This document shows positions 3,158 through 64,000 of a stretch of DNA of 64,000 nt, in pieces; positions within the stretch are counted from its first letter, which is position 1, and each line of letters starts with the position of its first letter. Where the stretch lies: NCBI GenBank assembly GCA_964373805.1, contig CAYJWF010000004.1:1891-65890 (forward strand). Direction: 5' to 3'. The notes beneath the pieces are model-generated. The model searched no databases. It saw nothing but the letters and a program-made list of their open reading frames with translations, and was not told the DNA's origin. The stretch comes from an uncultured Planctomycetia bacterium (lineage in GTDB: Bacteria > Omnitrophota > Gorgyraeia > 1-14-0-20-64-10). Position numbers and translations under genes: made by a program.

Positions 3158-4329
3158 CCTTGAAGCAGGACGACCGCGTAGGCGGCCATCGCCTCTTTCG
3201 CACCAATGGGACCTAAACCTTCCATCGTCCGGACCTTCACGTTCACTTGGGATTCCTTAACCTTAAGAAGCCTCGCCACGGAGCTGCGAATCGCCTCTCG
3301 ATGGGGACCTAACCGTGGCTCCTCGGTGATGACCATGAGATCGGCGTTGGAAATTTCAAGTTTCCTGGCTCGAATCAGCCGAAGCGCCTTGGCGATGAAT
3401 CGCTGGCTCGGGGCCCCTTTCCATTTGGAATCGGTATCGGGAAAGTGGCTCCCTAAGTCCCCGGCCCCTGCCGCCCCCAGCATCGCGTCGCAGAGGGCGT
3501 GGAGGAGCACGTCCGCATCGGAGTGACCCAGGAGTCCCTTCTTCGCTGGAATCTTCCTTCCCCCTAAGACGAGCGGCCGGCCCGCGATCAACCGATGAAT
3601 ATCAAACCCAATGCCTACTCGCATATCAAAAGGGGTCTGACCCCTTTTGCCTTTCATCAAGGTTTCCGCCATCAAGAGATCATCCTGAGTGGTCACCTTC
3701 AAATTCCGGGGAGAACCTTCCACGATCCGTACCTTGACCCCCATCGCCTCCACCAAGGCTGCGTCATCCGTTGCGGTAACCCGCCTGATTCTTGCCCGAT
3801 GGTGAGCCGATTCCAACAGATCCCGACGAAACACTTGAGGGGTCTGGATCGCCCAGAGGTGGTTTCGATCCAAGGTTTTGGCCACCCATCCGGCCCTGAC
3901 CTGCTTGATCGTCGGAACCACTGGGATAGCCGCCACGGCCGCTTGCGTCCGTTGGGCGGTCCGGATCGTCTCCATAAGGAGCTCCGATGGGACGAGGGGA
4001 CGAGCCCCATCGTGAACCACCACCCACTCTGCCGATGGAGGAAGCGCCTGCAATCCTCGGAAGACTGAGGCGGTCCGAGAAGCGCCTCCCGGGATGATCT
4101 GAATCACCTTCCGATAGCGGTACTTCTGGACCATCCGTTGGACCGCCGCGACATCGTCCCGATGACTGACCACAACCATCCCATCGATCGGACGAGCCTG
4201 CTCCAAGGCGCTTAAGGTCCAAGACAGCATCGGCCGTCCAGCCAACCGGACGAACGGCTTTCGGACCTTCTTCTTAAAACGTCTGCCCTCTCCAGCAGCT
4301 GGGACAATAGCGACAACCCTAGGTGCCAG
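3145..4329 (-). CDS. ispDF: bifunctional 2-C-methyl-D-erythritol 4-phosphate cytidylyltransferase / 2-C-methyl-D-erythritol 2,4-cyclodiphosphate synthase (IspDF)
   Basis: Tracked ORF starts at a TTG (4245). The same frame upstream encodes the conserved IspD N-terminus VVAIVPAAGEGRRF, right up to an in-frame TAG at 4351-4353. The C-terminal half is IspF (GHSDADVLLHAL...). No ATG/GTG/TTG lies between the TAG and the motif; the start is placed at CTG 4327-4329 by inference. Confidence 0.8.
   Translation of the reverse strand: MAPRVVAIVPAAGEGRRFKKKVRKPFVRLAGRPMLSWTLSALEQARPIDGMVVVSHRDDVAAVQRMVQKYRYRKVIQIIPGGASRTASVFRGLQALPPSAEWVVVHDGARPLVPSELLMETIRTAQRTQAAVAAIPVVPTIKQVRAGWVAKTLDRNHLWAIQTPQVFRRDLLESAHHRARIRRVTATDDAALVEAMGVKVRIVEGSPRNLKVTTQDDLLMAETLMKGKRGQTPFDMRVGIGFDIHRLIAGRPLVLGGRKIPAKKGLLGHSDADVLLHALCDAMLGAAGAGDLGSHFPDTDSKWKGAPSQRFIAKALRLIRARKLEISNADLMVITEEPRLGPHREAIRSSVARLLKVKESQVNVKVRTMEGLGPIGAKEAMAAYAVVLLQGCRS
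3628..3650. repeat. P1 palindrome inside ispDF (IspD-IspF linker)
   Basis: AAAAGGGGTCTGACCCCTTTTGCC; encodes GKRGQTPF. Confidence 0.85.
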
Positions 4330-4350: not shown

Positions 4351-5379
4351 CTATCTCGCCGCCTTCCAGGCCGCTCGAGAGTTCTCCACCTCCGGCTTGG
4401 CAAAGATCATCCGCCCCGCAGCGGTCTGAAGGACGCTCGTCACCAACACCCGAACCGTCTGCCCGATCAAGGAACGACCCTGTTCGACCACCACCATGGT
4501 CCCGTCATCGAGGTAGGCCACCCCCTGATTGTACTCCTTGCCCTCTTTGATCACCCGGGCCTCCAACAGCTCCCCGGGCAACACCACCGGCTTTAAGGCG
4601 TTGGACAACTCGTTGATGTTAAGCACCGGGACCCCTTGCAGCTCGGACACCTTGTTCAAATTAAAATCGTTGGTCAAGATCTTGGCCCCCATCAGCTTCG
4701 CCAATCGGACGAGCTTCGCGTCCACCTCTTTGGTGTCCGGGAATTCCTCCTCGTGGATCTTCACCTCCACGGAAGGAATCTTCTGCATCCGGGCCAAGAC
4801 GTCCAACCCCCGACGACCTCGGTTGCGCTTGATGGGGTCTTGGCTGTCGGCGATCTGCTGGAGCTCCTTCAAGACAAAACGGGGGATCACCAACCGGCCC
4901 TCGATGAACTGGGTATCACAGATGTCCGCGATCCGCCCATCGATGATGACGCTCGTGTCAAGGATGACGACCTCTTCCCGTTGATCCTGGCGGGTAAACT
5001 TCACATAGGGGATGATGACGTTGAACTCATCCCGACCCCGAACGGCGATGGCCATCCCAAAGTAACAGAAGATCACGACGATCGCCGCCCGAACGGGATT
5101 GCCCAACTCCGGCCCGGTGGGAACCATATCCAAGGTCGTGATGATGAGCCTCGCCATCAACAGCCCAAAGGCCAGCCCAAAGGCGGCGGCCGAGAGGCCG
5201 CGGCTCGAAACCTTCTTCAAGGCCAATTCCAAACCGATCAAGATCAAAGCCACACCGGCTCCCCCCAGGGCTCCGGTCAAGCCCGCCTCGGATCCCCCCA
5301 AGCCCATCAAGGGTCCGATCTGATAACCGACCATGGCCCCTAGGGCCACAAAGAAGAATCGAATGAACCACAGCGTCAT
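4351..5379 (-). CDS. PIN/TRAM domain membrane protein (YacL-like)
   Basis: N-terminal TM helices, PIN domain ([12 protein letters not shown]), C-terminal TRAM-like domain; yacL is the usual neighbour of ispDF. Confidence 0.75.
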
Positions 5380-9295: not shown

Positions 9296-11769
9296 ATGTG
9301 ACGTTCCGCAGGAGTAGGCGCCGGATGGAAGACCAGTCGATCGTTCTCCACCTCGATCAAGAGCGCTGCCCCCTCCTTGTAGTGTCCCGCGATGATCTCT
9401 TGCGCTAGGGGATCCTCCAAGTGCCGGGCAATGGTCCGTTTCAAAGGTCGGGCCCCATAGATCGGATCAAATCCCTTATCGATCAAGAACTCTTTGGCCG
9501 CGGGCGACAACTCGATGGCGATGCCCTGTTCCCGAACCCGGGCCATGACCTCGGCCATCTCGATCTCTACAATCCGATGGAGATCCTGCCGGGTCAAGGA
9601 TCTAAAAACAATGGTCTCATCCACTCGGTTCAAGAACTCCGGCTTAAAGGTTTTCTTCATCTCCTCCAAGAGCTGACCCTTCATGTCTTGATACGTCACC
9701 TCCTCCTTGGGGGTCTTAAATCCCAAGGAGCCCTGCTTACGCAGCAGCTCCGCCCCCAGGTTGGAGGTCATGATCAAGACCGTGTTCTTGAAATCGACCT
9801 TCCGGCCAAAGCTGTCGGTGAGCCTGCCCTCCTCCAAGACCTGCAGGAGAAGATTGAAGACGTCCGGATGGGCCTTCTCCAATTCGTCCAGGAGGACCAC
9901 GGAGTAAGGGCGCCGACGGACCTTCTCGGTCAACTGCCCGCCCTCTTCGTATCCCACGTAGCCGGGTGGGGCTCCCACCAGTCTTGAGACGTTGAACTTC
10001 TCCATGTACTCCGACATGTCGACCTGGATCATCGCCTCCTCATTCCCAAAGAGAAACTCGGCCAGCGCCCGGGCCAACAAGGTTTTCCCCACGCCGGTGG
10101 GCCCTAAGAAGATGAAAGAGCCGATCGGCCGTCGAGGGTCTTTGAGGCCTGCGCGGGAACGGCGAATGGCGTTGGCGATCGCCTCGATCCCCTCCTGCTG
10201 GCCGACCACCCGCTTATGGATCTCCTCCTCCATCCGCAGGAGTTTCTGCGTTTCCTTCTCCTCCAAACGGGAGACGGGGATGCCGGTCCATTTGGAGACG
10301 ATCTGGGCGATGTCCTCCTCGGTGATCACCGGCTGCGCCTCGGCCTTGGAACGGGACCATTCCCGCTTCGCCCGCTCCATCTCGGCCCTGGCCTCCCGCT
10401 CCTGATCCCGCAGCGACGCCGCCTTCTCGAAGTCCTGTCCCTTGACCGATGCCTCCTTTTCCTTGCGCAAGGTTTCGATCCGTTCCTCAACCTCCTTCAA
10501 GTTGGGAGGGGCGGTCAACACCATCAGCCTCGCCCGGGATCCGGACTCGTCCATGAGATCAACCGCCTTATCGGGCAGGTACCGCCCCGAGATGTAGCGG
10601 TCGGACAGCTTGGCCGCCGCCTCGAGCGCGGCGTCCGAGTACTTCACCTTGTGGTGGGCCTCGTACTTGTCCCTTAACCCCTTCAAGATGGCGATCGTCT
10701 CCTCGACCGTTGGGGGATCCACCACGATCGTCTGGAATCTTCGTTCCAGGGCTGCGTCCTTCTCGATGTACTTGCGGTACTCATCCAACGTGGTCGCCCC
10801 GATGCATTGGATCTCCCCACGGGACAAGGCCGGCTTCAAGATGTTGGAGGCGTCGATCGCCCCTTCCGCCCCACCGGCCCCCACCAAGGTATGCAGCTCA
10901 TCGATGAAGATGATCACATTCTCCGAGCGCCGGATCTCATCCATCACCGCCTTGATCCGCTCCTCGAACTGCCCTCGGTACTTGGTACCGGCCACCATCA
11001 AGGCCAGGTCCAGGATGACCACCCTTTTATCCTTCAAGATCTCCGGAACATCGCTCCGAATGACCTTTTGGGCCAAGCCCTCCACAATGGCGGTCTTTCC
11101 CACGCCGGCCTCCCCCAACAGAACCGGGTTGTTCTTGGTTCGACGGGAGAGAATCTGGATCACCCGTTCGATCTCGTTCTTGCGGCCGATCACCGGATCC
11201 AGTTTGTTTTCTCGGGCCAACTGGGTAAGATCCCGGCCAAAGGCGTCCAGGGCTGGCGTCTTGGTCTTGGCCGGAGCCGGCCCCATCGCGCTGTAGCCGG
11301 GAGCGGTCGATCCCAACAGCTCCATGACCTCCTGCCGGACCTTCCCGAGATCGAGCCCTAAGTTCACCAATACCTGGGCGGCGATTCCCTCCCCTTCCCG
11401 GATGAGGCCCAAAAGGAGGTGTTCGGTTCCGATGTAGTTGTGCCCTAAGTTCCGGGCCTCGTCCATCGCCAGCTCAATCACCTTCTTCGCCTTCGGGGTG
11501 AAGGGAATGTCGCCGGAGACAATGGTGGAAGGCCCCAGCTGCACCAGCTTCTCCACCTCCAATCGGATCTGGTCGGAGCTTAACCCTAAATTTTGCAGGA
11601 CCGCAGCCGCGACCCCTTCCCCCTCTCGGATGAGGCCCAGCAGGATATGCTCCGTCCCAATGTAATCATGATTAAACCGTTTGGCCTCTTCCTTGGCCAA
11701 AAGGATCACCTTCCGCGCCCGCTCGGTAAACCGATTAAACATATTCATCCCGTTACACCTCCTTTCCAC
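9292..11769 (-). CDS. clpC: ATP-dependent Clp protease ATP-binding subunit ClpC
   Basis: Two N-terminal Clp repeats, two AAA+ modules ([16 protein letters not shown]), UVR-like linker; 825 aa. Confidence 0.9.
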
Positions 11770-17984: not shown

Positions 17985-18012
17985 CAAAAAGGTACCAGGT
18001 ACCATTTTAAAA
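17985..18012 (-). terminator. putative rho-independent terminator of ilvE (GGTAC-CTG-GTACC hairpin plus U-run)
   Basis: Minus-strand RNA reads ...AAAAUGGUACCUGGUACCUUUUUGAG directly after the ilvE stop. Confidence 0.5.
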
Positions 18013-18017
18013 CCCCA

Positions 18018-18036
18018 ACGGGGTCAGACCCCATCA
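18018..18036. repeat. P1 palindrome, intergenic (ilvE-mcsA)
   Basis: CAACGGGGTCAGACCCCATC. Confidence 0.8.
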
Positions 18037-23687: not shown

Positions 23688-23730
23688 GATGGTACCAGGT
23701 ACCTTTCTAAAATGGTACCTGATACCATTT
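23688..23730. repeat. P2 twin hairpins GGTACCAGGTACC + GGTACCTGATACC (lnt 3' end / lysS upstream)
   Basis: GATGGTACCAGGTACCTTTCTAAAATGGTACCTGATACCATTTTA. Confidence 0.8.
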
Positions 23731-23732: not shown

Positions 23733-25178
23733 CGGCCTTCCTCGATGCAAAGATAGGGAATCCACCCCGGATTCAAAGCGAGGAACTGAGGAGATCCGCC
23801 GCCCGGCCGGATCGATGAAGCCGGACCACCCGGTGTTGGCGGCGCGAACCACCCAAACCCGGTTTTCAATCGCACGGAACACGCAGGCCTGCAGATGCTG
23901 AAGCGAGGCAGCCGACCGATGAAACCAGGCGTCGTTGGTGATGACCAGGAGCCACCGGGCCCCTTCCCGAACAAAACGTCGAGACAAATCTGGAAAGAGA
24001 TCCTCGAAGCAGATGAGCACACTGAAGGGAAGGACGTCGTGGGTCTTGAGTCTTGAGTCTTCAGTAAAAGGCTGCCGAAAAGTAGCCGGTTGGAAAACGG
24101 TGAATCGACTTCCGGGGGAGAAATTCCCCATTAAAACGAACCGGCGTAGCCATCCAAAAAAGAACTCGAGGGGGAGGTATTCCCCGAAAGGGACCAGATG
24201 AACCTTGTCGTAACGTTCCACGAGATTCCCTTGGGGGTTTAAAAGGCAAGCGCTGTTAAACATCCTTTCGGTACCTGATACCGTTTCAGTAACCGGTGCC
24301 CCCACCAGTAAAGGAGTGTCCGTGGCTTGCGCCAATTTCTGGAGCCGTTCGAAGATCTCGGGGTCCTCCAAGTATCCAGGTACCGCCGTCTCCGGCCAGA
24401 CGATGAGGTCCGGACGGGATTGAGCGGCTTGACCCGTTAACGTTTCGTAGCGATGCCAGATCTCCTCTTGGAAAACCTCATCCCACTTCTCGGTCTGCGG
24501 GATGTTGCCCTGCACCACCGCAACCCTGAAAGACAGTCGTGGGTCGTGGGTCGTGGGTCGCGAGTAAACCTCAAGCTGGTGAATGCGAAAGGAGCCGTAG
24601 GCCAGCGCAGCAAGCAAACAGGCGCCTGCCAACGCTATAGCGGATAGTCCTTTCCTATACGCTGTACGCTGGACGCTATACGCTAACCAAAGGGCCACGT
24701 TGACCAGAACCACGAGAAAAGAGACCCCGTAGACACCGGTCAAATCGGCGATCTGAATGACCGGAATCCAATTCCACTGGGTGTGAGCGATCAGGTTCCA
24801 TCCGAAGCCGGTCAACCAGGTGTTGCGAAGATACTCCAGAAGAACCCACGCCGCCGGCAAAGTGAGAAGGGGTGTACGGTGTACGGTGTGCGGCGTACGG
24901 CGAAGACCACTCACCATTCTCTGGGCGAGCCAGCCCCAGATCCCAAAATACAGAGCCAGGTATCCGATCAGTAAAACCGTCCCGGGAATCGTCACGTATC
25001 CCACCCACCAGATCGTCCCAGCAAAGAAGAGGATCCCGATAAGATAGCTTTGTAGGAAGGCCTTTCTTGGGGAACTTTTCTCCAGCGCAAGCAGCCAAGG
25101 CAGATAGGCCACCCACGCTAGCCACCCCAAATCAAAAGGCGGGAAACTTAAGACGAAAAGAAGGGCAGAGACAGCCAA
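23730..25178 (-). CDS. lnt: apolipoprotein N-acyltransferase
   Basis: N-terminal multi-TM region plus C-terminal CN-hydrolase domain (CFEDLFP); carries three in-frame heptamer tandem arrays and one GGTACCTGATACC palindrome. Confidence 0.85.
   Translation of the reverse strand: MAVSALLFVLSFPPFDLGWLAWVAYLPWLLALEKSSPRKAFLQSYLIGILFFAGTIWWVGYVTIPGTVLLIGYLALYFGIWGWLAQRMVSGLRRTPHTVHRTPLLTLPAAWVLLEYLRNTWLTGFGWNLIAHTQWNWIPVIQIADLTGVYGVSFLVVLVNVALWLAYSVQRTAYRKGLSAIALAGACLLAALAYGSFRIHQLEVYSRPTTHDPRLSFRVAVVQGNIPQTEKWDEVFQEEIWHRYETLTGQAAQSRPDLIVWPETAVPGYLEDPEIFERLQKLAQATDTPLLVGAPVTETVSGTERMFNSACLLNPQGNLVERYDKVHLVPFGEYLPLEFFFGWLRRFVLMGNFSPGSRFTVFQPATFRQPFTEDSRLKTHDVLPFSVLICFEDLFPDLSRRFVREGARWLLVITNDAWFHRSAASLQHLQACVFRAIENRVWVVRAANTGWSGFIDPAGRRISSVPRFESGVDSLSLHRGRP
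24036..24900. repeat. four separate heptamer tandem arrays inside lnt
   Basis: (GTCTTGA)x2.4 near 24044; (GTCGTGG)x3.4 near 24529; (AGCGTMY)x4 near 24640-24690; (GTGTACG)x4 near 24866. All are kept in frame (encode SRLKT, PTTHDPR, AYSVQRTAYRK, RTPHTVHRTP). Confidence 0.7.
24268..24284. repeat. P2 single hairpin GGTACCTGATACC inside lnt
   Basis: In frame; encodes ...ETVSGTER... Confidence 0.7.
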
Positions 25179-31810: not shown

Positions 31811-31909
31811 GTATAGCAGATGAGAGGCTAACGGGCTAGAAGAATACTTGGGCTTGCTTACGACTAACTTAAGCGGTAAAGAGGTAAGAGTTTAGCGTAG
31901 CGAGAGAAA

Positions 31910-32040
31910 TAAGAGCCCGTTCGCCCTGAGCTTGGTCGAAGGGTGAACGGGTGGCGTTCGTGGTTCGACAGGCCTGCCCTGAGCAGCAATCCCAAAGGGG
32001 TCGAAGGGCTCACCACGAACGGCCCTTCTCTCTGTCTCGG
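31910..32040. repeat. R3 nested-hairpin repeat, largest copy
   Basis: CCGTTCGCCC-TGAGCTTGGTCGAA-GGGTGAACGG, then TTCGTGG-...GCCCTGAGCAGC...GGGGTCGAAGGGC...-CCACGAA. Confidence 0.7.
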
Positions 32041-32075
32041 AGAGCTGAACTCTTACAAACAAAGGGCGGAAGGAC

Positions 32076-32195
32076 TTTATCCCTTCGGGGACTTCTGATG
32101 CTGATGTCGGTGGCGGTACTGAGACCAGTAGGTGCAGGCAATCCCTACCAAGGCTATGACCGAGAGGAACAGATAGGTGGCTATCGCTGAATTCA
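32076..32195 (-). CDS. tiny single-TM membrane protein B2 (39 aa), paralog of B1
   Basis: MNSAIATYLFLSVIALVGIACTYWSQYRHRHQHQKSPKG; ATG 3 nt after the A2 stop; His/Gln/Arg-rich C-terminus like B1. Confidence 0.45.
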
Positions 32196-32199
32196 TCCT

Positions 32200-32409
32200 T
32201 TAACTTTTCCTCCCATCCAAGACGTAACCCCACCAGAACAATAGCCAGGCGTTGCTTGCTCCAAAACACAACGTTACCATATCGAAGTTTTTCCAAGCAA
32301 TAAAATTTCCGATCACCGCTGTGGCAAAAACAATCTTGCTCAAATCGTAAAAATACTTGGCTACGTTTTCCTGCTGTCGCTGGGTCACTGAATATTCCTC
32401 CTTACCCAA
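32200..32409 (-). CDS. small two-TM membrane protein A2 (69 aa), paralog of A1
   Basis: ...KIVFATAVIGNFIAWKNFDMVTLCFGASNAWLLFWWGYVLDG. Confidence 0.5.
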   Translation of the reverse strand: MGKEEYSVTQRQQENVAKYFYDLSKIVFATAVIGNFIAWKNFDMVTLCFGASNAWLLFWWGYVLDGRKS

Positions 32410-32451: not shown

Positions 32452-32955
32452 TTAAATAAAACCTTCTTCTTTGAGGAGGCGGCGCTTGGCGGCGAGGCCC
32501 CCTTTGGCGGAGTACCCCCCTAAGGTCCCATCACTGGCGATCCCGCTTCGCGGGATTCTCCTTAAACGGTGCACCTTTCGGTGCACGAAAAACTTAGAGG
32601 AAACGACCCGGTGGCAGGGGATCTGAGGCGCCCAGCGGTTTCGTTTCAAGGCCTGCCCCACCGCCCGAGCCGCTTTCGGCTGGCCGATCTGTCTGGCCAC
32701 CCAGGCATAAGTTCGCACCTGCCCCTTGGGAATCTTCAGGATCGCCTCGTATACCTTCCGTTGAAACGGGGTACACTTCTTCCACCACTCCTGCCGATCG
32801 ATCCCATCTCGAATGGGGTCGAAGGGTCGAATCACTACAAGGGGCAGATCCCCACGGGTGATCATCATCGGCTGCCTGTGTCTTGCCACTTCATCCATTA
32901 CCCTATCGAAGTTCCTCTCAGTGAACCTTTCTGATATCTTCTTCACTTTTATCAC
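32452..32955 (-). CDS. ogt: methylated-DNA-protein-cysteine methyltransferase (MGMT/Ogt-like), with a 23-aa insertion in the active-site loop
   Basis: Conserved MGMT C-domain (TPFQRKVYEAI...TYAWVA...PCHRVV ... DGTLGGY). PCHRVV and DGTLGGY are separated by 23 extra residues encoded by two GAA(A)-loop hairpins in the DNA. Confidence 0.7.
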   Translation of the reverse strand: MIKVKKISERFTERNFDRVMDEVARHRQPMMITRGDLPLVVIRPFDPIRDGIDRQEWWKKCTPFQRKVYEAILKIPKGQVRTYAWVARQIGQPKAARAVGQALKRNRWAPQIPCHRVVSSKFFVHRKVHRLRRIPRSGIASDGTLGGYSAKGGLAAKRRLLKEEGFI

Positions 32956-34417
32956 CTTCCTGTGTCTTGTCTGTCTTTAGATGAATCAGGATTCGCTGGG
33001 CGAGTACCGCAGAGATTCCTCGCACCTGGGTGAGATCCTCGGCAGTGGCCTTGCGGATCGCTTCCACCGAACCGAAGAGAACCAAGAGGTCCTGCCGCCG
33101 GCGGGGCCCCACCCCGGGAACATCATCGAGGGCTGAGCTCAGCGCGTGCTTGCCTCGGAGAAGCCGGTGATAGCCAATGGCGAACCGATGGGCCTCATCC
33201 CGGAGCCGTTGGATGAGCTGCAGCGCCTTCGACTGCGGCGGCAAAACGATCGGCTCCTCGTGGCCAGGCAGGAACAGCTGTTCGAACTCCTTGGCGATCC
33301 CCACAGCCGGCAGATCCAGTTTAAGCTCCCTGAACACCTCCAGGGCGGCGTTGAGATGCCCCTTGCTTCCGTCGATCACCACCAGGTCCGGCCTTTTTTC
33401 GGTACCAGGTACCTTTTTAAGAACGGTGCCTGGCACCGTGAGGGGTTCGTATCGCCGCCGGACGATCTCTTTCATCATGGCGTAATCGTCAATCCCGTGG
33501 ACGCCCCTGATTTTAAATCGACGGTACCCATCCTTGAAAGGGACTCCGTCGACAAAGGTCACCATCGACCCGACCGCCTGACGGCCGAAGAGGTTGGAGA
33601 CGTCAAACCCCTCGATGCGCTGGGGCAGCCGCGGCAACTTGAAGATCGATCGTAAGTCGTCCAAGGCCTCGGCCGGGATCAGCCGCCGGGGACGGACGGT
33701 CAGTTGAAGTAAGCCGGCCACCTGATCCCTGAACCTCGCCGCCTCCTCGTAGCGACGGGTCTGGGAGGCCTCGTTCATCTTCCCTTTAAGATCTTCGAGC
33801 ACCTCCTCCTTTTTGCCTTCCATCAATCGGAAAACCTGGGAGAGGTTTTCTCGATAAGCCGCTGGAGAGATCTTTCCTTCACAGGGCGCTGGGCAAAGCT
33901 TGAGATGATAATCGAGACAAGCCCGTTTCGGCAACGTCCGACAGGTTCTAAAAGGGATCACCCGTCGAATGGCGCCGACGGCTTGCCTGAGCAGTTTGGC
34001 GTTGGTGAAGGGGCCGATCGCCTTGATCCCAGACTCGTGGGTCCCCCGCCCAATGAAAAGCCGAGGAAACTCCTCCTCCACGGTGATCTTTAAGGAGGGA
34101 TACGACTTGTCGTCTCGAAAGGAAACGTTGTACTTAGGTTGATGCTCCTTGATGAGGCTCGCCTCGTAGAGAAGGGCCTCCGCCTCCGAGCCGGTCAAGA
34201 TCCACTCCAAATCGTTCGTCTGCTGAATCAGTCGGAGCAGCTTATCGGTGAGCGGCCGACTGGGTTGAAAGTAGCTTGAGACCCTCTTGCGCAGGGAAAC
34301 GGCCTTGCCAACGTACAGGATCTGGCCGTCAACGTCCTTGAAGAGATAGACCCCGGGGCGGTCGGGAAGCTCGCTTAACTTTTTCTGAAGCGCTGGGGGC
34401 ACCGCTCGGCCAGCCAT
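32918..34417 (-). CDS. uvrC: excinuclease ABC subunit C
   Basis: N-terminal GIY-YIG (GVYLFKD...YVGKA), UVR domain, RNase-H-like endonuclease domain and C-terminal HhH; carries a twin-hairpin insertion encoding TVPGTVLKKVPGTEKR. Confidence 0.85.
   Translation of the reverse strand: MAGRAVPPALQKKLSELPDRPGVYLFKDVDGQILYVGKAVSLRKRVSSYFQPSRPLTDKLLRLIQQTNDLEWILTGSEAEALLYEASLIKEHQPKYNVSFRDDKSYPSLKITVEEEFPRLFIGRGTHESGIKAIGPFTNAKLLRQAVGAIRRVIPFRTCRTLPKRACLDYHLKLCPAPCEGKISPAAYRENLSQVFRLMEGKKEEVLEDLKGKMNEASQTRRYEEAARFRDQVAGLLQLTVRPRRLIPAEALDDLRSIFKLPRLPQRIEGFDVSNLFGRQAVGSMVTFVDGVPFKDGYRRFKIRGVHGIDDYAMMKEIVRRRYEPLTVPGTVLKKVPGTEKRPDLVVIDGSKGHLNAALEVFRELKLDLPAVGIAKEFEQLFLPGHEEPIVLPPQSKALQLIQRLRDEAHRFAIGYHRLLRGKHALSSALDDVPGVGPRRRQDLLVLFGSVEAIRKATAEDLTQVRGISAVLAQRILIHLKTDKTQEGDKSEEDIRKVH
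33400..33442. repeat. P2 twin hairpins GGTACCAGGTACC + GGTGCCTGGCACC inside uvrC
   Basis: TTTTTTCGGTACCAGGTACCTTTTTAAGAACGGTGCCTGGCACCGTG; each hairpin reads VPGT in the uvrC frame (TVPGTVLKKVPGTEKR). Confidence 0.85.
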
Positions 34418-39097: not shown

Positions 39098-40693
39098 TTA
39101 CCACTGAGAACTAGCGAAAGGCCACTGGGCCATCCAGAGAACGAGCTGAGTCAACCCATGCGCCAGCCCCGTAAAGCTGGCGACAAAAGGGGCGGCCAAC
39201 CCTGGATGGATCGCCCCTGCTCCTAACAACCCGATTCCGGTGGCCACCAAAAGCGAGGTCCACGGAACGATGAGGAGATTGGCCAACGGGGCAATGGAGG
39301 TCACCAGATGGAAGTGCCAAGCCACCCAAGGCACCACGGCGACCCAGGCCGCCACGGAAGTGGCCACGGCCTGGGCGATCCACCGCCAGAATCGCCCTTC
39401 GGTGTCCCGTTCGGTGTCAGACACCGAAGCAACTTTTATAAAGATGGTGCAGTGTCTGACACCGTCGGTCAGCAACCTCGCCAACCACGGCGCCAAAACG
39501 AGCAGACCCAGAACCGCCGAAAAGGAAAGCTGAAACCCTGGATCGGCCAACGCTCGAGGACCGACCGAGAGGATCCCCAGCGCCGCCAACCCCAGAAAGT
39601 TGATCTGCGGGTGTTCCCTTCCCCGCCACAAACTTAAGGAAAGCCCGATCCCGGTGATCGTAGCGCGAAGGATGGGGGGATCCGCTCCGGTGAGTAGGCC
39701 GTAGACGGCCAGGATCCCGATCACCATCCCAAAGCGGACAGCGCGCGGGATCCGCAGAATCGTCAATCCTATTCCGGCGATGAATCCGATGAGGCCCACC
39801 TGAAAGCCGCTCACCACCAACACGTGAATCGTCCCGGTCCGGCGAAAGGCTTCCCGCAACGAAGAAGGAATCTCTCCGGGGGTCCCTAGAAGAAGTTCTT
39901 CCAGGTAAGCGGCCTCGAGGGGACCCAGCAGGGAACGGCCAAGCTGTTGAAGCTGCCGCCGAAAGGCCGCCACCCATCGTCGATAACGCACCCAGGGTCC
40001 CCCCATCTGCCCAAGAGACGTCATGGAACTCGGATCCGATACCGTGAGAATTCCACACGCCTCGTTCAGCCAAAGCCAGCGGCGCTCATCCCCCCTCACC
40101 CTTTTCCCTCTCCCCTCAGAGGAGAGGGTGGGGGTAAGGGGCCCACGGATCTCTCCGTGGAGGCGCACCCGGTCCCCGTAAGCCAGCGCGACTCCATACG
40201 TTGGGAGCCGAACCAACACCTTGCCGGAGGCCGGAATCCAGCCGTCCCGCTGCCAAACCTCGGTCAAACGGAGCCACCCTTGCCGACGCGCCGGTCCGGA
40301 GGGAGGTTTGGTCCACTCCACATCGCTGGCCATCACTCCTTTGCAAGTAATGGGCCGCGGTGGCTCTGCTAGGTGACGGGCAATGGAATCGGTCGGCATT
40401 TGGGCATCCACGAAGGCCCGGAAAAATCCGAGGGCTCCGATGAGGAACAAGAGAGCCCCGTTCGCCATCACCGATCGATGCCGAATCCAGTAGTAAATTC
40501 CGGCAACAATTCCGACCCCACCCCCAATCGCCCAGACCGGCGGCTGGATCCACCAGGCCAACCCGATCCCACAGGAAAAAGCTGCGGCCACCGCCGCCAG
40601 GGGCGCCCGATGGGTCGGCTGGCCCCCCGCGTTTTGTTTCGTTGGCGAAGCAAAACGAAACTTGGGGGGCTGGGCAACTGGGGATGGATTCAT
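39098..40693 (-). CDS. comEC: competence protein ComEC/Rec2 (DUF4131 plus competence domain, no beta-lactamase domain)
   Basis: Multi-TM ComEC core; the tracked N-terminus is read through repeat R2 copy D, so the true start is probably further in. Confidence 0.7.
   Translation of the reverse strand: MNPSPVAQPPKFRFASPTKQNAGGQPTHRAPLAAVAAAFSCGIGLAWWIQPPVWAIGGGVGIVAGIYYWIRHRSVMANGALLFLIGALGFFRAFVDAQMPTDSIARHLAEPPRPITCKGVMASDVEWTKPPSGPARRQGWLRLTEVWQRDGWIPASGKVLVRLPTYGVALAYGDRVRLHGEIRGPLTPTLSSEGRGKRVRGDERRWLWLNEACGILTVSDPSSMTSLGQMGGPWVRYRRWVAAFRRQLQQLGRSLLGPLEAAYLEELLLGTPGEIPSSLREAFRRTGTIHVLVVSGFQVGLIGFIAGIGLTILRIPRAVRFGMVIGILAVYGLLTGADPPILRATITGIGLSLSLWRGREHPQINFLGLAALGILSVGPRALADPGFQLSFSAVLGLLVLAPWLARLLTDGVRHCTIFIKVASVSDTERDTEGRFWRWIAQAVATSVAAWVAVVPWVAWHFHLVTSIAPLANLLIVPWTSLLVATGIGLLGAGAIHPGLAAPFVASFTGLAHGLTQLVLWMAQWPFASSQW
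40612..40665. repeat. R2 hairpin repeat copy D at the comEC 5' end
   Basis: CCCCCCGCGTTTTGTTTCGTTGGCGAAGCAAAACGAAACTTGGGGGG. Confidence 0.7.
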
Positions 40694-47303: not shown

Positions 47304-49868
47304 TTAAACGACGAGGCTGATGAGGCGGTTGGGGACGACAATCACCTTCTTCGGCGGCTTGCCATCCAACCAGCGTTGAACGTTGGGATCCTGAAGAACC
47401 TTGGCCTTCAGCTCCTCCTCTTGAGAGCCAACCGGGACCGTCAGATGGGAGCGGACCTTGCCGTTGACCTGCACGACCAGGGTCACCTGCGACTCCTGGA
47501 GGAGGGCAGGATCGTAGGTTGGCCAAGGAGCCTTGGCCAACATCTCCTGGTGGCCCAGCCGTTCCCACAGCTCCTCGGCCAGGTGAGGGGCAAGGGGGTT
47601 TAAAAGCCGGGCCAGCGTCTCGATGGCTTCCTTTCTCTGCCCATCGGAAAGCTGAGGAAAAATCCTCTCCAGGGAGTTCCGATACTCCATCAGGGCGCTG
47701 ATCGCCGTGTTGAACTTGAAGCTCTCCAGATCCTCGGTGACCCGCTTGATCGTCGCGTGGGTGAGGCGCTTAAGCTCACCATCCGATGGAAAACCTGATG
47801 GGGTCAGACCCCTTGGGGTCTGACCCCTTTGACCCTCCACCAAGTTCCAGACCCGATTCATGAACCGCCAGATGCCGTCGATGGCGCTGTCGTTCCATTC
47901 CAGTTGATCCTCCGGGGGAGCGGCGAAAAGGATGAAGAGTCTTAAGGCATCGGCCCCGTACTTGGCGATCACTCCCTCCGGATCGACCACGTTCCCCTTG
48001 GATTTGGACATGACCTCGCCATCCTTCAAAACCATTCCCTGAGTCAAGAGGCGAGAAAACGGCTCTGAGATTGTAAGGAGCCCTAGATCCCGCAGGAACT
48101 TGGTGAAGAAACGGGAATACAGGAGATGCAGGATGGCGTGCTCGATCCCACCGATGTACTGGTCCACCGGCATCCAGAAGGCGGCCTCTTGGGAATCAAA
48201 CGCAGTGGCGGCCGCTTTCGGGGCCGCGTGCGGCTTCGGGGAACAGAACCGCAGGAAGTACCACGAGGAGTCGAAGAAGGTGGCTATGGTGTCGGTCTCT
48301 CGACGGGCCGGTTGCCGACATTTGGGACAGGGCGTCTCCACAAAGGCCTTGACCTTGGCCAACGGTGAGCCCCCGGCTCCTGTGATTGAAACCTTGGGCG
48401 GCAAGGTGACCGGCAACTGGTTCTCAGGAACCGGCACGGTCCCGCAACGGGAGCAGTAAACGATCGGGATGGGAGTCCCCCAGTACCGCTGTCGAGAGAT
48501 GAGCCAATCCCGAAGCCGCCAATGGGTCGTCCGCTGGCCAAATCCATTCTCCTCCATCCAGGCGGCGATCTTTCCCTTACCCTCTTGACTAGACAGACCA
48601 TTAAACTGGGCGGAGTTGACCTGGATCCCTTCCCCTTCGAAGGCCTCTTTCCATCGGCTGGGATCAGGGACAGTCCCCGAAGCTTGCCCTGAGCTTGTCG
48701 AAGTGGGAGACGGTCCCTGAGGAGGCTGGATCACGACTCGGATCGGAAGTCGATGTTCCTTGGCGAACAGAAAATCCCGCTGATCGTGCGCCGGGACCGC
48801 CATGATCGCCCCGGTGCCGTACTCCATGAGGACATAATCGGCCACCCAGATCGGGATTGCCTCTGCGTTCACCGGGTTGATGGCCATCCGCCCGGTGAAA
48901 ATCCCCTCCTTCTTTCTATCGGCGGCGGTCCGGACCTCTCTGGGCTGGCGCTTCACCCGATCGATGAAGGCCCGAACCTGGGGCCCTTTAGGGTTACCTT
49001 GAAGAAGCTCCTCGACGACCGGATGTTCTGGCGCCAAAACGACGTAGGTGGCGCCAAAGATCGTGTCCGGCCGGGTGGTAAAGACCGGAAGTTTTGTCGA
49101 GCTGTTCTGAATGGAAAATTGGATCCGAACCCCTTGGCTCTTCCCGATCCAGTTCCGTTGCATGGTTAAGACACGCTCCGGCCAGCGGCCCAAGGTATCC
49201 AGGTCCTGCAGGAGTTCCTCCGCATACGCGGTGATTTTCAAGAACCACTGCTCCAACTCCTTCGGCTCCACGGCGGTTCCACAGCGCCAGCAGCCGTCTT
49301 GGACCACCTCCTCGTTGGCCAGGGTCGTCTGACAACTGGGACACCAGTTGACCGTGGCTCCGGCCCGATAGGCGAGGCCCTTCTCGAACATCTTGAGGAA
49401 GATCCACTGGTTCCATCGGTAATAGTCCGGCTGGCAGGTCACCACCTCTCGATTCCAGTCGTAGGAGAATCCCAAACGTTTCAAGCCGGTTCGCACCTCT
49501 CCGATGCACCGGAAGGTCCACTCGGCCGGATCCACCTTCTGTTTGATCGCCGCGTTCTCCGCCGGCTGGCCAAAGGCATCGAATCCCGTGGGATGAAGGA
49601 CCCGGTACCCCTGGGCCATCCGAAACCGGGCCAGGACGTCGCCGATCGTGTAGTTCCGGACATGCCCCATGTGGAGGCGCCCCGAGGGATAGGGGAACAT
49701 TTCCAGGAGGTAATATTTTCCTCTTCCGGTGTCTGGCACCGACCCGACCTTTGGCTCCTTCGGGGTGCCTGACACCGGTGTGGCCTGGAAGATCTTCGCC
49801 TCTTCCCACCGCCGCTGCCACTTTTCTTCGATTTCTTGAAATGGGTAAGCCATCGTCGGAAAAGCCAT
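47304..49868 (-). CDS. leuS: leucyl-tRNA synthetase
   Basis: HIGH (HMGHVRN) and KMSKS motifs; 854 aa; carries two in-frame repeat insertions. Confidence 0.95.
47798..47830. repeat. two tandem P1 palindromes inside leuS
   Basis: GATGGGGTCAGACCCCTTGGGGTCTGACCCCTTT; encodes [12 protein letters not shown]. Confidence 0.85.
48655..48700. repeat. R3-related segment inside leuS coding sequence
   Basis: ...GCTTGCCCTGAGCTTGTCGAAGTGGGAG...; in frame; encodes part of the [14 protein letters not shown] linker in LeuS. Confidence 0.5.
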
Positions 49869-49937: not shown

Positions 49938-50008
49938 TGGGGCTGTAGCGTAAAGGGAGCGCATCTCCATGGCATGGAGGAGGTGAGGGTTCGATTCCCT
50001 CCAGCTCC
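49938..50008 (+). tRNA. tRNA-Ala (anticodon GGC)
   Basis: Cloverleaf folded by hand: acceptor GGGGCTG/CAGCTCC with G3:U70, anticodon loop ATGGCAT, T-arm GAGGG-TTCGATT-CCCTC; coordinates +/-1. Confidence 0.7.
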
Positions 50009-50029
50009 AACAATTTCCATTCAAATACT

Positions 50030-50113
50030 TGGGGATGTGCTGGAATTGGCAGACAGGGGAGTCTCAAAAACTCCTGGGCGCAAGCCCGTGGGGGTTCAAG
50101 TCCCTCCATCCCC
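50030..50113 (+). tRNA. tRNA-Leu (anticodon CAA), type II with long variable arm
   Basis: Acceptor GGGGATG/CATCCCC, D-arm CTG-GAATTGGCAGA-CAG, anticodon stem GGAGT/ACTCC with loop CTCAAAA, variable arm TGGGCGCAAGCCCGT, T-loop TTCAAGT; coordinates +/-1. Confidence 0.7.
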
Positions 50114-50151
50114 ACTCAAATTTCTCCATCCCTCATTTGGGAGGGCTCTTG

Positions 50152-58674: not shown

Positions 58675-58692
58675 GGGGTCTGACCCCATCAG
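58675..58692. repeat. P1 palindrome, intergenic (after nrdJ)
   Basis: CTCGGGGTCTGACCCCATCAG. Confidence 0.8.
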
Positions 58693-59276
58693 AATTTTTC
58701 GCACCGTTTTAAGATCGCCCGAAAGTTCCTCTTCAAGCTCGAGCGCTCCAGTTCTTGGAAAACCCACTCGGGAATCCAGAAGTTCGGTTCGACGGTCGTT
58801 TCGTACGTGATTCGGGTTTCCCCTTCGACCGATTCCAAATACCAGTAGCCCTGATTCCATACAAAATCCCCCTCGACCGCCTTAAAGAGAAGCTGGGTGT
58901 TGGAAATTTCTTGAACCTGGAAAACCGTTCGGATCACTCTTCGATAAAACGGCAAGCGGACTCTTGCCTCCTGATAGAGCACTAAGCGATCCCCTTTTCG
59001 CTCAAGGACTTTGGAGATCTTAAGATCCGGGATAAATTCGGCTAGGTGGTCGTAATCGGTCAAAACAGCCCAAACCTTTTCCTTTGGGACAGCAACGACC
59101 ACCCGGGCTAAGACGTAGGTTCGACGGGGGGCTAGACGCTCTACGGTAACGGTAAGGGAATAGGGCCCTATTTCGGTAACGCGGGTTTCCTCGGCAAGAA
59201 GGAAAGAGGCGCTCCCCACGAGAGAGCTTAACGCCAGCAGTAAGGTTACACCACCCATGCAAGTTGACCCGTTCAC
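58689..59276 (-). CDS. secreted SRPBCC (START/Bet v1-like) family protein
   Basis: Signal peptide then polyketide-cyclase/dehydrase-like fold pattern (~150 aa). Confidence 0.45.
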   Translation of the reverse strand: MNGSTCMGGVTLLLALSSLVGSASFLLAEETRVTEIGPYSLTVTVERLAPRRTYVLARVVVAVPKEKVWAVLTDYDHLAEFIPDLKISKVLERKGDRLVLYQEARVRLPFYRRVIRTVFQVQEISNTQLLFKAVEGDFVWNQGYWYLESVEGETRITYETTVEPNFWIPEWVFQELERSSLKRNFRAILKRCEKF

Positions 59277-63587: not shown

Positions 63588-63799
63588 TTTTTCGGTGATG
63601 ACCGGGGCTAGCTGTCTGGATTGTTCATTTCGCCATAGAAATGTCCTGTTAGTAACAGGTTACCTGCTCCCGCAGGAAAATTCAAGGCCCCACAAGCCGC
63701 AAGGAAATTTTCCTCACTTTTACCTCCCCATAGGCCATACTTGATGTGAAGACCTCGAAAAAGGCACGGCCACATTCAAGGCCACGCAAAGCCACGGAT

Positions 63800-63845
63800 C
63801 TTTTGGTGCCAGGCACCTTTTAAAGATGGGTGCCTGGCACCAAAA
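63800..63845. repeat. P2 twin hairpins GGTGCCAGGCACC + GGTGCCTGGCACC upstream of tpsA
   Basis: TTTTGGTGCCAGGCACCTTTTAAAGATGGGTGCCTGGCACCAAAAAAG. Confidence 0.8.
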
Positions 63846-64000
63846 AAGAGAGCCGGGCTGCCGAGGTGCAGAAGATTTTGCGTCACGGCAACCCGGCGTT
63901 TTTATTTTCCTGGTTTCCTTCGGCCTTTCGTAAAAGGTGAGAACGGATTAGGATGGAAGGGATAACCTTAAGATGACGATGCAGCGAGTTAATCCTTTGC

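Follow-up and report, generated by a model that had tools for sequence, protein, structure and literature searches.

The window analysed here is a stretch of 64,000 nucleotides (64 kb) of contig CAYJWF010000004.1 (positions 1,891 to 65,890; assembly GCA_964373805.1), deposited as an uncultured Planctomycetia bacterium and placed in the Omnitrophota by GTDB. In the list of open reading frames (ORFs) of the window, its uvrC gene is the minus-strand ORF 32918-34417, which encodes 499 residues. The product has 7993 homologues, and those with names are 'excinuclease ABC subunit UvrC' proteins of Candidatus Omnitrophota. It comprises GIY-YIG, UVR, RNase H-like endonuclease and (HhH)2 domains and matches the PDB entries 3C65, 2NRT and 1YD6. 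We found that this gene carries an in-frame doublet of short palindromes. An earlier note on this DNA had described it as twin hairpins, but missed the identity of the element, which on sequence grounds is a repetitive extragenic palindrome (REP) doublet, a REPIN-like element, of a family associated with the REP-associated tyrosine transposases (RAYTs).

The plus strand at 33394-33440 reads TTTTTTC-GGTACCAGGTACC-TTTTTAAGAAC-GGTGCCTGGCACC-GTG. REP unit 1 (GGTACCAGGTACC, 33401-33413) has an A at its centre and encodes V-P-G-T, residues 336-339 of UvrC, and REP unit 2 (GGTGCCTGGCACC, 33425-33437) has a T at its centre and codes within T-V-P-G-T-V. The A/T-rich spacer of 11 nt between them (TTTTTAAGAAC, 33414-33424; GUUCUUAAAAA in the mRNA) encodes V-L-K-K. 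The doublet lies in frame within uvrC, and the minus strand translates to ...RRRYEPLTVPGTVLKKVPGTEKRPDLVVIDG. Unit 2 is embedded in a 17-nt palindrome with 8-nt arms (ACGGTGCCTGGCACCGT, 33423-33439). The two units differ at three positions, all of them third codon (wobble) positions. That two sequence variants both read VPGT, as the earlier note had remarked, is correct but uninformative: the codon families GTN and ACN, and likewise CCN and GGN, are reverse complements of each other, so that G-GTN-CCW-GGN'-ACC read in this frame must give Val-Pro-Gly-Thr. The two independent hairpins with 5-bp stems that had been proposed are better described as a single long hairpin, in which the inverted units pair with each other and the spacer forms the loop. 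Its folding energy is -24.6 kcal/mol on the sense strand (z -2.7) and -33.2 kcal/mol on the antisense strand (z -4.2), and the inequality of the arms (GGTACC vs GGTGCC) costs one mismatch and one G-U pair. Identical uvrC DNA was independently assembled from two further sequencing runs (loci L001 and L002), so the doublet is no assembly artefact.

At the protein level, the insert adds 9 residues relative to the solved C-terminal half of UvrC in 3C65 and 14 relative to that in 2NRT, in both cases exactly at the linker. The AlphaFold2 model of UvrC (mean predicted local distance difference test score, pLDDT, 90.8) consists here of a helix (residues 311-327), a coil (328-344) and a strand (345-349), and residues 331-340, with a pLDDT of 65, are among the two lowest internal blocks of the model. 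In the model the insert is a coil of low confidence that leads from this helix to the LVVIDG strand of the RNase H-like domain. We take this strand to bear the Asp that is reportedly catalytic in T. maritima UvrC (Karakas et al. 2007).

The distance from the RRY motif to the PDLxxIDG motif is 19 residues in the window and 6-9 residues in many orthologues (for example, P0009 and P0012); an insert-free linker is RRRYDKAEPLPDLV of L006/P0012. The claim of an in-frame coding insertion was borne out by the alignment of orthologues between RRY and PDL, many of which lack the segment (again L006/P0012). Orthologues with an equal segment but without hairpin DNA, which the earlier note had named as the observation that would speak against it, were sought by comparing orthologous proteins and DNA, and none was found. 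As judged from these alignments, the uvrC doublet is an in-frame insertion relative to its orthologues.

The same linker is occupied by other palindromes in related genomes. In L003 it contains GGTACCTGGTACC-GAA-GGTACCTGGTACC followed by a decayed GGGTCTGACCT, so that a GGTACC twin of apparently recent origin stands next to the remains of a GGGTC unit. The linker of L004 holds a perfect hairpin with a 14-bp stem made of GGGACWGTCCC units, and that of L005 holds three GGGTCWGACCC units. In each genome the uvrC insert is of the palindrome type enriched in the rest of its own locus; L006 has neither an insert nor an enrichment. The uvrC genes of L130 and L131 are 91.9% identical in DNA over the whole gene, yet a GGGGTC doublet is present in one and a GGGAC doublet in the other. 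Insert types have a patchy distribution on a neighbour-joining UvrC tree, and sister sequences differ. These comparisons indicate that different families replace one another at the uvrC loop in close relatives. Across 120 homologues, REP-type tetrapeptides are confined to query residues 322-340, apart from the conserved CQAP motif and a few distant singletons. The palindromes of the orthologues are also read in other frames (RYLVP, GTWY).

Within the 64-kb window, GGTRCCWGGYACC with at most one mismatch has 11 matches where 0.12 would be expected, and 100 shuffles all gave fewer than 11. The twin units in uvrC are therefore real members of a repeated family, and copies of this family outside genes, as the earlier note had claimed, were confirmed at 17991, 23691/23714 and 63805/63829. 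A match at 10977-10989 (GGTACTTGGTACC) was rejected as a chance match, since it consists of minus-strand codons of the conserved Clp ATPase motif A-G-T-K-Y-R-G. Three doublets, at 23691/23714 (between lnt and aspS), 33401/33425 (uvrC) and 63805/63829, share a common plan of a centre-A unit, a T/A-rich spacer of 10-11 nt and a centre-T unit, with 23-24 nt from one unit start to the next; a further doublet lies at 47800. The units of each of the first three doublets are predicted to pair with each other into a single long hairpin (z -2.7 to -8), with energies of -28.1 kcal/mol (z -5.4) for the lnt-aspS doublet and -46.6 kcal/mol (z -8) for 63790-63860. The units are perfect palindromes of 13 nt that flanks extend to 17-23 nt, as compared with 20-40 bp for classical REPs.

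Further palindrome families in the window are GGGGTCWGACCCC, with six perfect copies, and GGGACWGTCCC, and GGTGTCWGACACC is a compensated variant of the first (GGTRCC-type) family. Of the 33 perfect odd palindromes of at least 13 nt in the window, 14 fall in these families. The census gives about 13 sites, namely 7-8 in ORFs (uvrC, three in leuS, cysS, ispDF, comEC and possibly lnt), one in a riboswitch and four in intergenic regions, so that about half are intragenic. No GTAG or CGTC tag is visible at a unit end among the listed window copies (units GGTACC.., GGTGCC.., GGGGTC..), and none of the three doublets is flanked by direct repeats, the target-site duplications expected of a miniature inverted-repeat transposable element.

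We scanned 185,579 species genomes for GGTACCWGGTACC-N2-12-GGTRCCWGRYACC and obtained at least 119 loci, against about 0.1 expected by chance on our own estimate. The matches listed include Thermoleophilia/Gaiellaceae, Acidimicrobiales, Gemmatimonadaceae, Bacillaceae, Clostridia, Acidobacteriota and Verrucomicrobiota, as well as a Patescibacteria metagenome-assembled genome (MAG), Omnitrophota and MAGs labelled 'Planctomycetia'. A scan of viral contigs for the doublet gave no matches. When the ORFs within 1.5 kb of the hairpins were clustered, one family recurred right beside them. It matches Pfam Y1_Tnp. In NCBIfam it is closest to NF047646 ('REP-associated tyrosine transposase'), with one member exceeding the curated cut-off and a far lower score for IS200, and its sole PDB match is the E. 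coli TnpA-REP, 4ER8. Among the matches listed, GGTRCC hairpins adjoin a RAYT in 10 gene copies at nine loci (L012, L020, L028, L030, L034, L044 with two copies, L053, L073 and L104), and six of these 10 copies (L020, L030, L034, L044, L053, L104) have hairpins on both sides, the classical REP-RAYT layout. The L028 MAG carries GGTACCAGGTACC-N11-GGTGCCTGGCACC, which is exactly the architecture found in uvrC. Of the two diverged RAYTs of Metabacillus arenae, one is enclosed by copies of the GGTGCC variant and the other adjoins the GGTACC variant. When metagenomes were scanned for doublets of GGGGTCWGACCCC, the matches listed included two RAYT-like genes (L146 and L223) with this family on either side.

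Some matches in the genome collection are (GGTACCT)n heptamer tandem repeats, which are a different thing. Arrays of (GGTACCT)n or (GGTACCA)n occur in L037, L071, L073, L076, L078, L080, L082 and L116, with hosts in Gemmatimonadaceae, Acidobacteriota, Cellulomonas and Planctomycetota, and the L073 array abuts a RAYT-like gene. In Thermoleophilia loci (L021, L022, L024, L032, L038-L040, L065, L087, L092, L095 and others), the GGTACC doublet sits centrally in a larger asymmetric element (..GGTTCGAAGGATC[doublet]TGACTTGCGAAGCT..), which is conserved, about 80 nt long and present in either orientation. Searching proteins with the L028 RAYT gave 13 matches, two of which (P0129 and P0130) were followed; they lie beside diversity-generating retroelement cassettes in AT-rich genomes, have no GGTRCC hairpins, and were uninformative on this lineage. 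Distant Y1_Tnp genes occur in L126-L129 (GCA_040961635.1, GCA_030153545.1 and others), where they are placed directly upstream of diversity-generating-retroelement-like cassettes composed of a target with an FGE-sulfatase domain, bAvd and a reverse transcriptase. L126 also has a GTAG-headed palindrome at 189-217, about 5.8 kb from the Y1_Tnp gene.

Other protein genes of the window carry units of the same families. The leuS gene has three sites: an in-frame doublet GGGGTCAGACCCC-TT-GGGGTCTGACCCC at 47800-47827, a third-family unit GGGACAGTCCC at 48667-48677 that encodes GTVP, and two degenerate units (GGTGTCTGGCACC ... GGTGCCTGACACC, 49728-49776) in the N-terminal region just ahead of KYY..MFPYPSG. 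The leuS orthologue of L005 has a doublet at the site matching 47800-47827 and three GGGTCWGACCC units in the loop matching 48667; the same two loops are occupied in both LeuRS proteins, with inserts differing in type or orientation. A 15-residue LeuRS peptide encoded at 48640-48720 (minus strand) resembles GLSPRSTGSGQAPGTVPG in the UvrC linker of the homologue P0049, and this likeness suggests a longer element with two GGGAC units separated by about 24 nt (..TCGACAAGCTCAGGGCAAGCTTCG..). The leuS start has two tRNA genes directly upstream (49939-50114), which are on the plus strand, opposite to leuS. In ispDF, CAAAAGGGGTCTGACCCCTTTTG (3627-3649, 11-nt arms) is in frame exactly at the junction of the IspD and IspF domains (KRGQTPF), and in cysS, AAAGGGGTCAGACCCCTTT and a degenerate partner GGGGCCTGACCCC are in frame at 2130-2189. 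The minus-strand gene comEC has TTCGGTGTCAGACACCGAA (39410-39428), with the compensated variant GGTGTCWGACACC, in frame (SVSDT...GRFWR). L045 has a full GGTACC doublet (SVPGTKQAIGTWYR, 4715-4752) at this site, and the window unit looks like an older copy there, partly decayed or variant. The hairpin noted earlier in lnt is present as a degenerate unit (GGTACCTGATACC, 24270-24282, reading T-V-S-G-T), but its status as an insertion is ambiguous because it adds merely two residues relative to the L004 orthologue.

In other genomes, ORFs across doublets were counted only if they had Pfam domains on both sides. In related MAGs, the Pfam alignments of ComEC, MurB and RsmD run across in-frame GGTACC doublets, at two sites in ComEC and at several in MurB. 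A further doublet lies in the linker that joins the two CobQ domains, and there are also copies in an LplA-like protein. A Thermoleophilia ABC ATPase provided one more example. In high-GC loci of Actinomycetota, many of the 'long ORFs' that extend across doublets are probably spurious stop-free frames and were set aside.

A further doublet, GGTGCCAGGCACC-N11-GGTGCCTGGCACC (63805-63841, with the spacer TTTTAAAGATG at 63818-63828), lies in a structured RNA. The plus strand at 63753-63866 matches the c-di-GMP-I riboswitch (Rfam RF01051) with 36.6 bits, where the gathering score is 35. The RF01051 alignment places a 38-nt doublet insert in the terminal loop of the riboswitch's second hairpin. On the plus strand 3' of the riboswitch there is a terminator-like GCCGGG...CCCGGC-UUUUUAUUUU, and then an ATG at about 63974. 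Since the riboswitch, the terminator-like site and the ATG are all on the plus strand, the riboswitch serves a plus-strand gene running off the window, not tpsA. The twin described earlier as upstream of tpsA thus exists, but belongs to the other strand and to the loop of a riboswitch.

In intergenic DNA, the doublet GGTACCAGGTACC-N10-GGTACCTGATACC (23691-23726, with the spacer TTTCTAAAAT at 23704-23713) stands between the lnt stop and the aspS start; the orthologous lnt-aspS spacer of L004 is 25 nt long and has no element. A single REP unit at 17991-18003, flanked by an A-run and a T-run, lies just downstream of ilvE and is terminator-like on the minus strand, and a second-family unit (GGGGTCAGACCCC, 18020-18032) directly follows the ilvE stop codon. 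The fourth intergenic site, GGGGTCTGACCCC (58675-58687), is between the convergent genes for ribonucleotide reductase and ORF 58689-59276. A scan with a terminator consensus flagged 17991 on the correct strand (after ilvE) and the uvrC copy only antisense, and the 31 terminator-like sites in the region, against 21 +/- 4 expected, are hardly an enrichment. We do not claim a terminator function, because the scan gave no convincing enrichment, and the earlier statement that the family serves as a terminator comes down to a resemblance. It is plausible that some of the intergenic copies act as transcription terminators.

Two other MAGs labelled 'uncultured Planctomycetia' (ERP125453 co-assemblies; L003 and L045) are tied to the window by the data. 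The UvrC of L003 is 71% identical to that of the window and has the same surrounding gene order, and L045 is syntenic with 66-73% DNA identity. The closest named UvrC relatives of these two MAGs are Omnitrophota, and the 'Planctomycetia' label of such MAGs is probably coarse or wrong; the same question of label concerns a group of loci comprising L003, L009, L045, L054, L102, L120 and others. Near uvrC, the unannotated ORF 31892-32296 (minus strand) has a translation that holds GEPFD...AQGRPVEPRT...STKLRANG. We presume that it resembles the translated GC-rich repeats common in environmental MAGs, and it is possibly another repeat family.

We regard it as highly probable that the uvrC doublet is a REPIN-like element of a RAYT-associated REP family that was inserted and tolerated. 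Two inverted 13-nt REP palindromes (GGTACCAGGTACC and the GGTGCC variant), with starts 24 nt apart, would make up one such element. Short palindromic repeats of this type would be mobilised by a RAYT, a Y1/HUH enzyme acting on single-stranded hairpin DNA, and a copy of about 36-39 nt would have entered uvrC at the loop that follows the ...MMKEIVRRRY helix and leads to the PDLVVIDG strand, with the presumed catalytic Asp of the RNase H-like 5'-incision domain. The insert could be tolerated because it lies in a surface loop, has a frame-keeping length, and consists of GG..CC palindromes that are free of stop codons in all six frames and translate into peptides rich in Gly, Pro, Thr and Val; it may be nearly neutral for UvrC, and a role as a terminator or at the RNA level is something that we would only infer. 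Similar events would account for the copies in leuS, cysS, ispDF, comEC and the riboswitch loop, and for those in murB, rsmD and cobQ of relatives. Once occupied, the uvrC loop would become a landing pad on which REP families succeed one another, as suggested by L003 and by the swap between L130 and L131 at 92% identity.

Several observations weigh against this explanation. The units are short (a 13-nt core, about 21 nt with flanks), are perfect palindromes and carry no GTAG/CGTC tag, and about half of the window copies are intragenic, contrary to the 'extragenic' of the definition. No RAYT gene was found by tblastn in the 64-kb window or in loci L001-L006, so RAYT mobilisation in this organism is inferred only from other genomes. 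The nearest relative is 76% identical, and there is no close orthologue with a clean empty site against which the exact insertion boundaries and any target motif could be drawn. Finally, a single loop holds all UvrC insertions, a pattern that could reflect selection for a structure there, not passive tolerance.

This last point leads to the alternative that survives best, although we consider it improbable. The doublet would be a selected regulatory structure in uvrC, either an mRNA pause site, an RNase site or an attenuator between the nuclease halves, or an antisense terminator, which was recruited from the repeats and kept as useful; this would account for the occupancy of one loop across so many lineages. 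The REP-type inserts of the 120 UvrC homologues do lie in a single linker, and this linker stays occupied while families turn over. The sense fold also beats shuffled sequences (z -2.7), and the antisense strand reads as a hairpin followed by UUUUU. However, there are many insert-free orthologues inside the same clade, and the sequence, length, unit number and reading frame of the inserts vary freely among lineages. The same elements are found in the loops of unrelated proteins and of a riboswitch, and the sense strand has no U-tract after the second hairpin.

The repeats could instead be DNA-uptake-type signals or binding sites of a host protein, spread by biased uptake and recombination, not by transposition, like the DNA uptake sequences (DUSs) of Neisseria. 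On that model, inverted pairs would be expected in terminators and in permissive coding sites of genome-maintenance genes, with 'dialects' that differ between lineages. The palindromes are indeed lineage-specific, with the coding copy matching the local 'dialect', comEA and comEC are nearby in relatives, and some genes have inverted pairs at their 3' ends. Such an origin is nevertheless very unlikely in view of the RAYT genes that are physically associated with the repeats and have them on both sides. Moreover, the unit is itself palindromic, unlike a DUS or an uptake signal sequence, an identical 13-mer exists in many unrelated phyla, and the whole doublet including its spacer is copied.

A protein-level event without mobile DNA, that is, a tandem duplication of a VPGT linker or a convergent Pro/Gly-rich linker with the palindromes as a by-product, can be given hardly any credence. 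It draws on the facts that VPGT forces near-palindromic DNA and that the linker is hypervariable in length, but is effectively refuted by the same 13-mers, spacing and spacer type in non-coding DNA; the orthologous palindromes are read in other frames, the wobble positions are complementary in both units, and the enrichment is 11 against 0.12. Chance matching or an assembly artefact, for which only the small size of each hairpin speaks, is refuted by the shuffle statistics and by the identical DNA in three independent assemblies, and its probability is negligible.

Beyond the insertion and tolerance of a REPIN-like element, a broader possibility is doubtful but can be formulated. GGTACCWGGTACC/GGTGCCWGGCACC and GGGGTCWGACCCC might represent a third, untagged REP superfamily with cognate RAYTs in many phyla, which would be actively transposing into coding loops and structured-RNA loops of Omnitrophota. 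The RRY-PDL linker of UvrC would then be a preferred landing pad, where families are exchanged within less than 10% genome divergence, possibly modulating nucleotide-excision repair. If true, this would be a site-targeted turnover of intragenic REPINs.

Definitions and models of REPs and REPINs treat them as extragenic passengers; in this compact Omnitrophota genome, about half of the copies lie within essential genes. The loops recolonised by different families show, as a natural map, where UvrC, LeuRS, ComEC, MurB and other proteins tolerate insertions. In uncultured bacteria, lineage-specific indels of housekeeping proteins can consist of mobile DNA, which affects alignments, phylogenies and gene calling. 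The L130/L131 pair, with different families at 92% identity, suggests that the process is recent enough to be studied with population data. A cross-phylum 13-mer beside RAYTs would also offer a simple substrate for studying RAYT specificity, with cultivable hosts such as Metabacillus arenae.

Several known systems resemble these elements in part. Bidirectional intrinsic terminators and Neisseria DUS pairs share with them a GC hairpin set between an A-run and a T-run at gene 3' ends (17991 and the 3627 type) and a sequence common to many sites. They differ in that the stems here are only 5-6 bp unless A/T flanks or the partner unit pair, and in that the association here is with a transposase, not with competence. 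A DUS is a non-palindromic 9-12-mer recognised by a competence receptor and present at about 1 per kb, whereas the unit found here is palindromic and has a density of about 1 per 4-5 kb. The Rickettsia palindromic elements (RPEs; Ogata et al. 2000, cited in PMC3733652 and PMC10969869) are reportedly in-frame palindromic repeats in housekeeping proteins at permissive positions. They differ from our elements in size (about 100-150 bp for RPE-1), in their restriction to Rickettsia and in having no known transposase, as compared with 13-nt modules linked to RAYT.

The closest likeness is to the REP/REPIN-RAYT system (Nunvar 2010; Bertels & Rainey 2011; Ton-Hoang 2012; 4ER8). Short GC-rich palindromes in dispersed copies (here over the 64 kb of the window), inverted doublets forming one hairpin, a frequent location at gene 3' ends, and a Y1/HUH transposase gene flanked on both sides (here in other genomes) are all shared. 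The differences are the 13-nt core, a perfect palindrome, the lack of a GTAG/CGTC tag, the intragenic location of about half of the copies, and the presence of one 13-mer beside RAYTs in many phyla. Intragenic REP insertion is itself a known phenomenon, since Di Nocera et al. 2013 (BMC Genomics 14:522, PMC3733652) described REPs lying wholly within ORFs, most frequently in Opitutus terrae and R. conorii and also in Thauera. In their survey, many intragenic REPs were in genes for excinuclease ABC, UvrD, RecBCD, PolA and tRNA synthetases (in the main text 'UvrC' does not appear as a word, only 'UvrABCD'), single or dimeric REPs added about 20-30 residues, and flexible linkers were suggested to tolerate them. 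The two REP superfamilies of that study are GTAG- or CGTC-tagged, and the REPs come from other phyla; that report contains neither a case of different families settling repeatedly in the same orthologous loop nor an insertion into a riboswitch loop. What is new here is a 13-nt untagged cross-phylum family, its presence in Omnitrophota, a very high intragenic share, the recolonisation of the same loop and a copy in the loop of a riboswitch.

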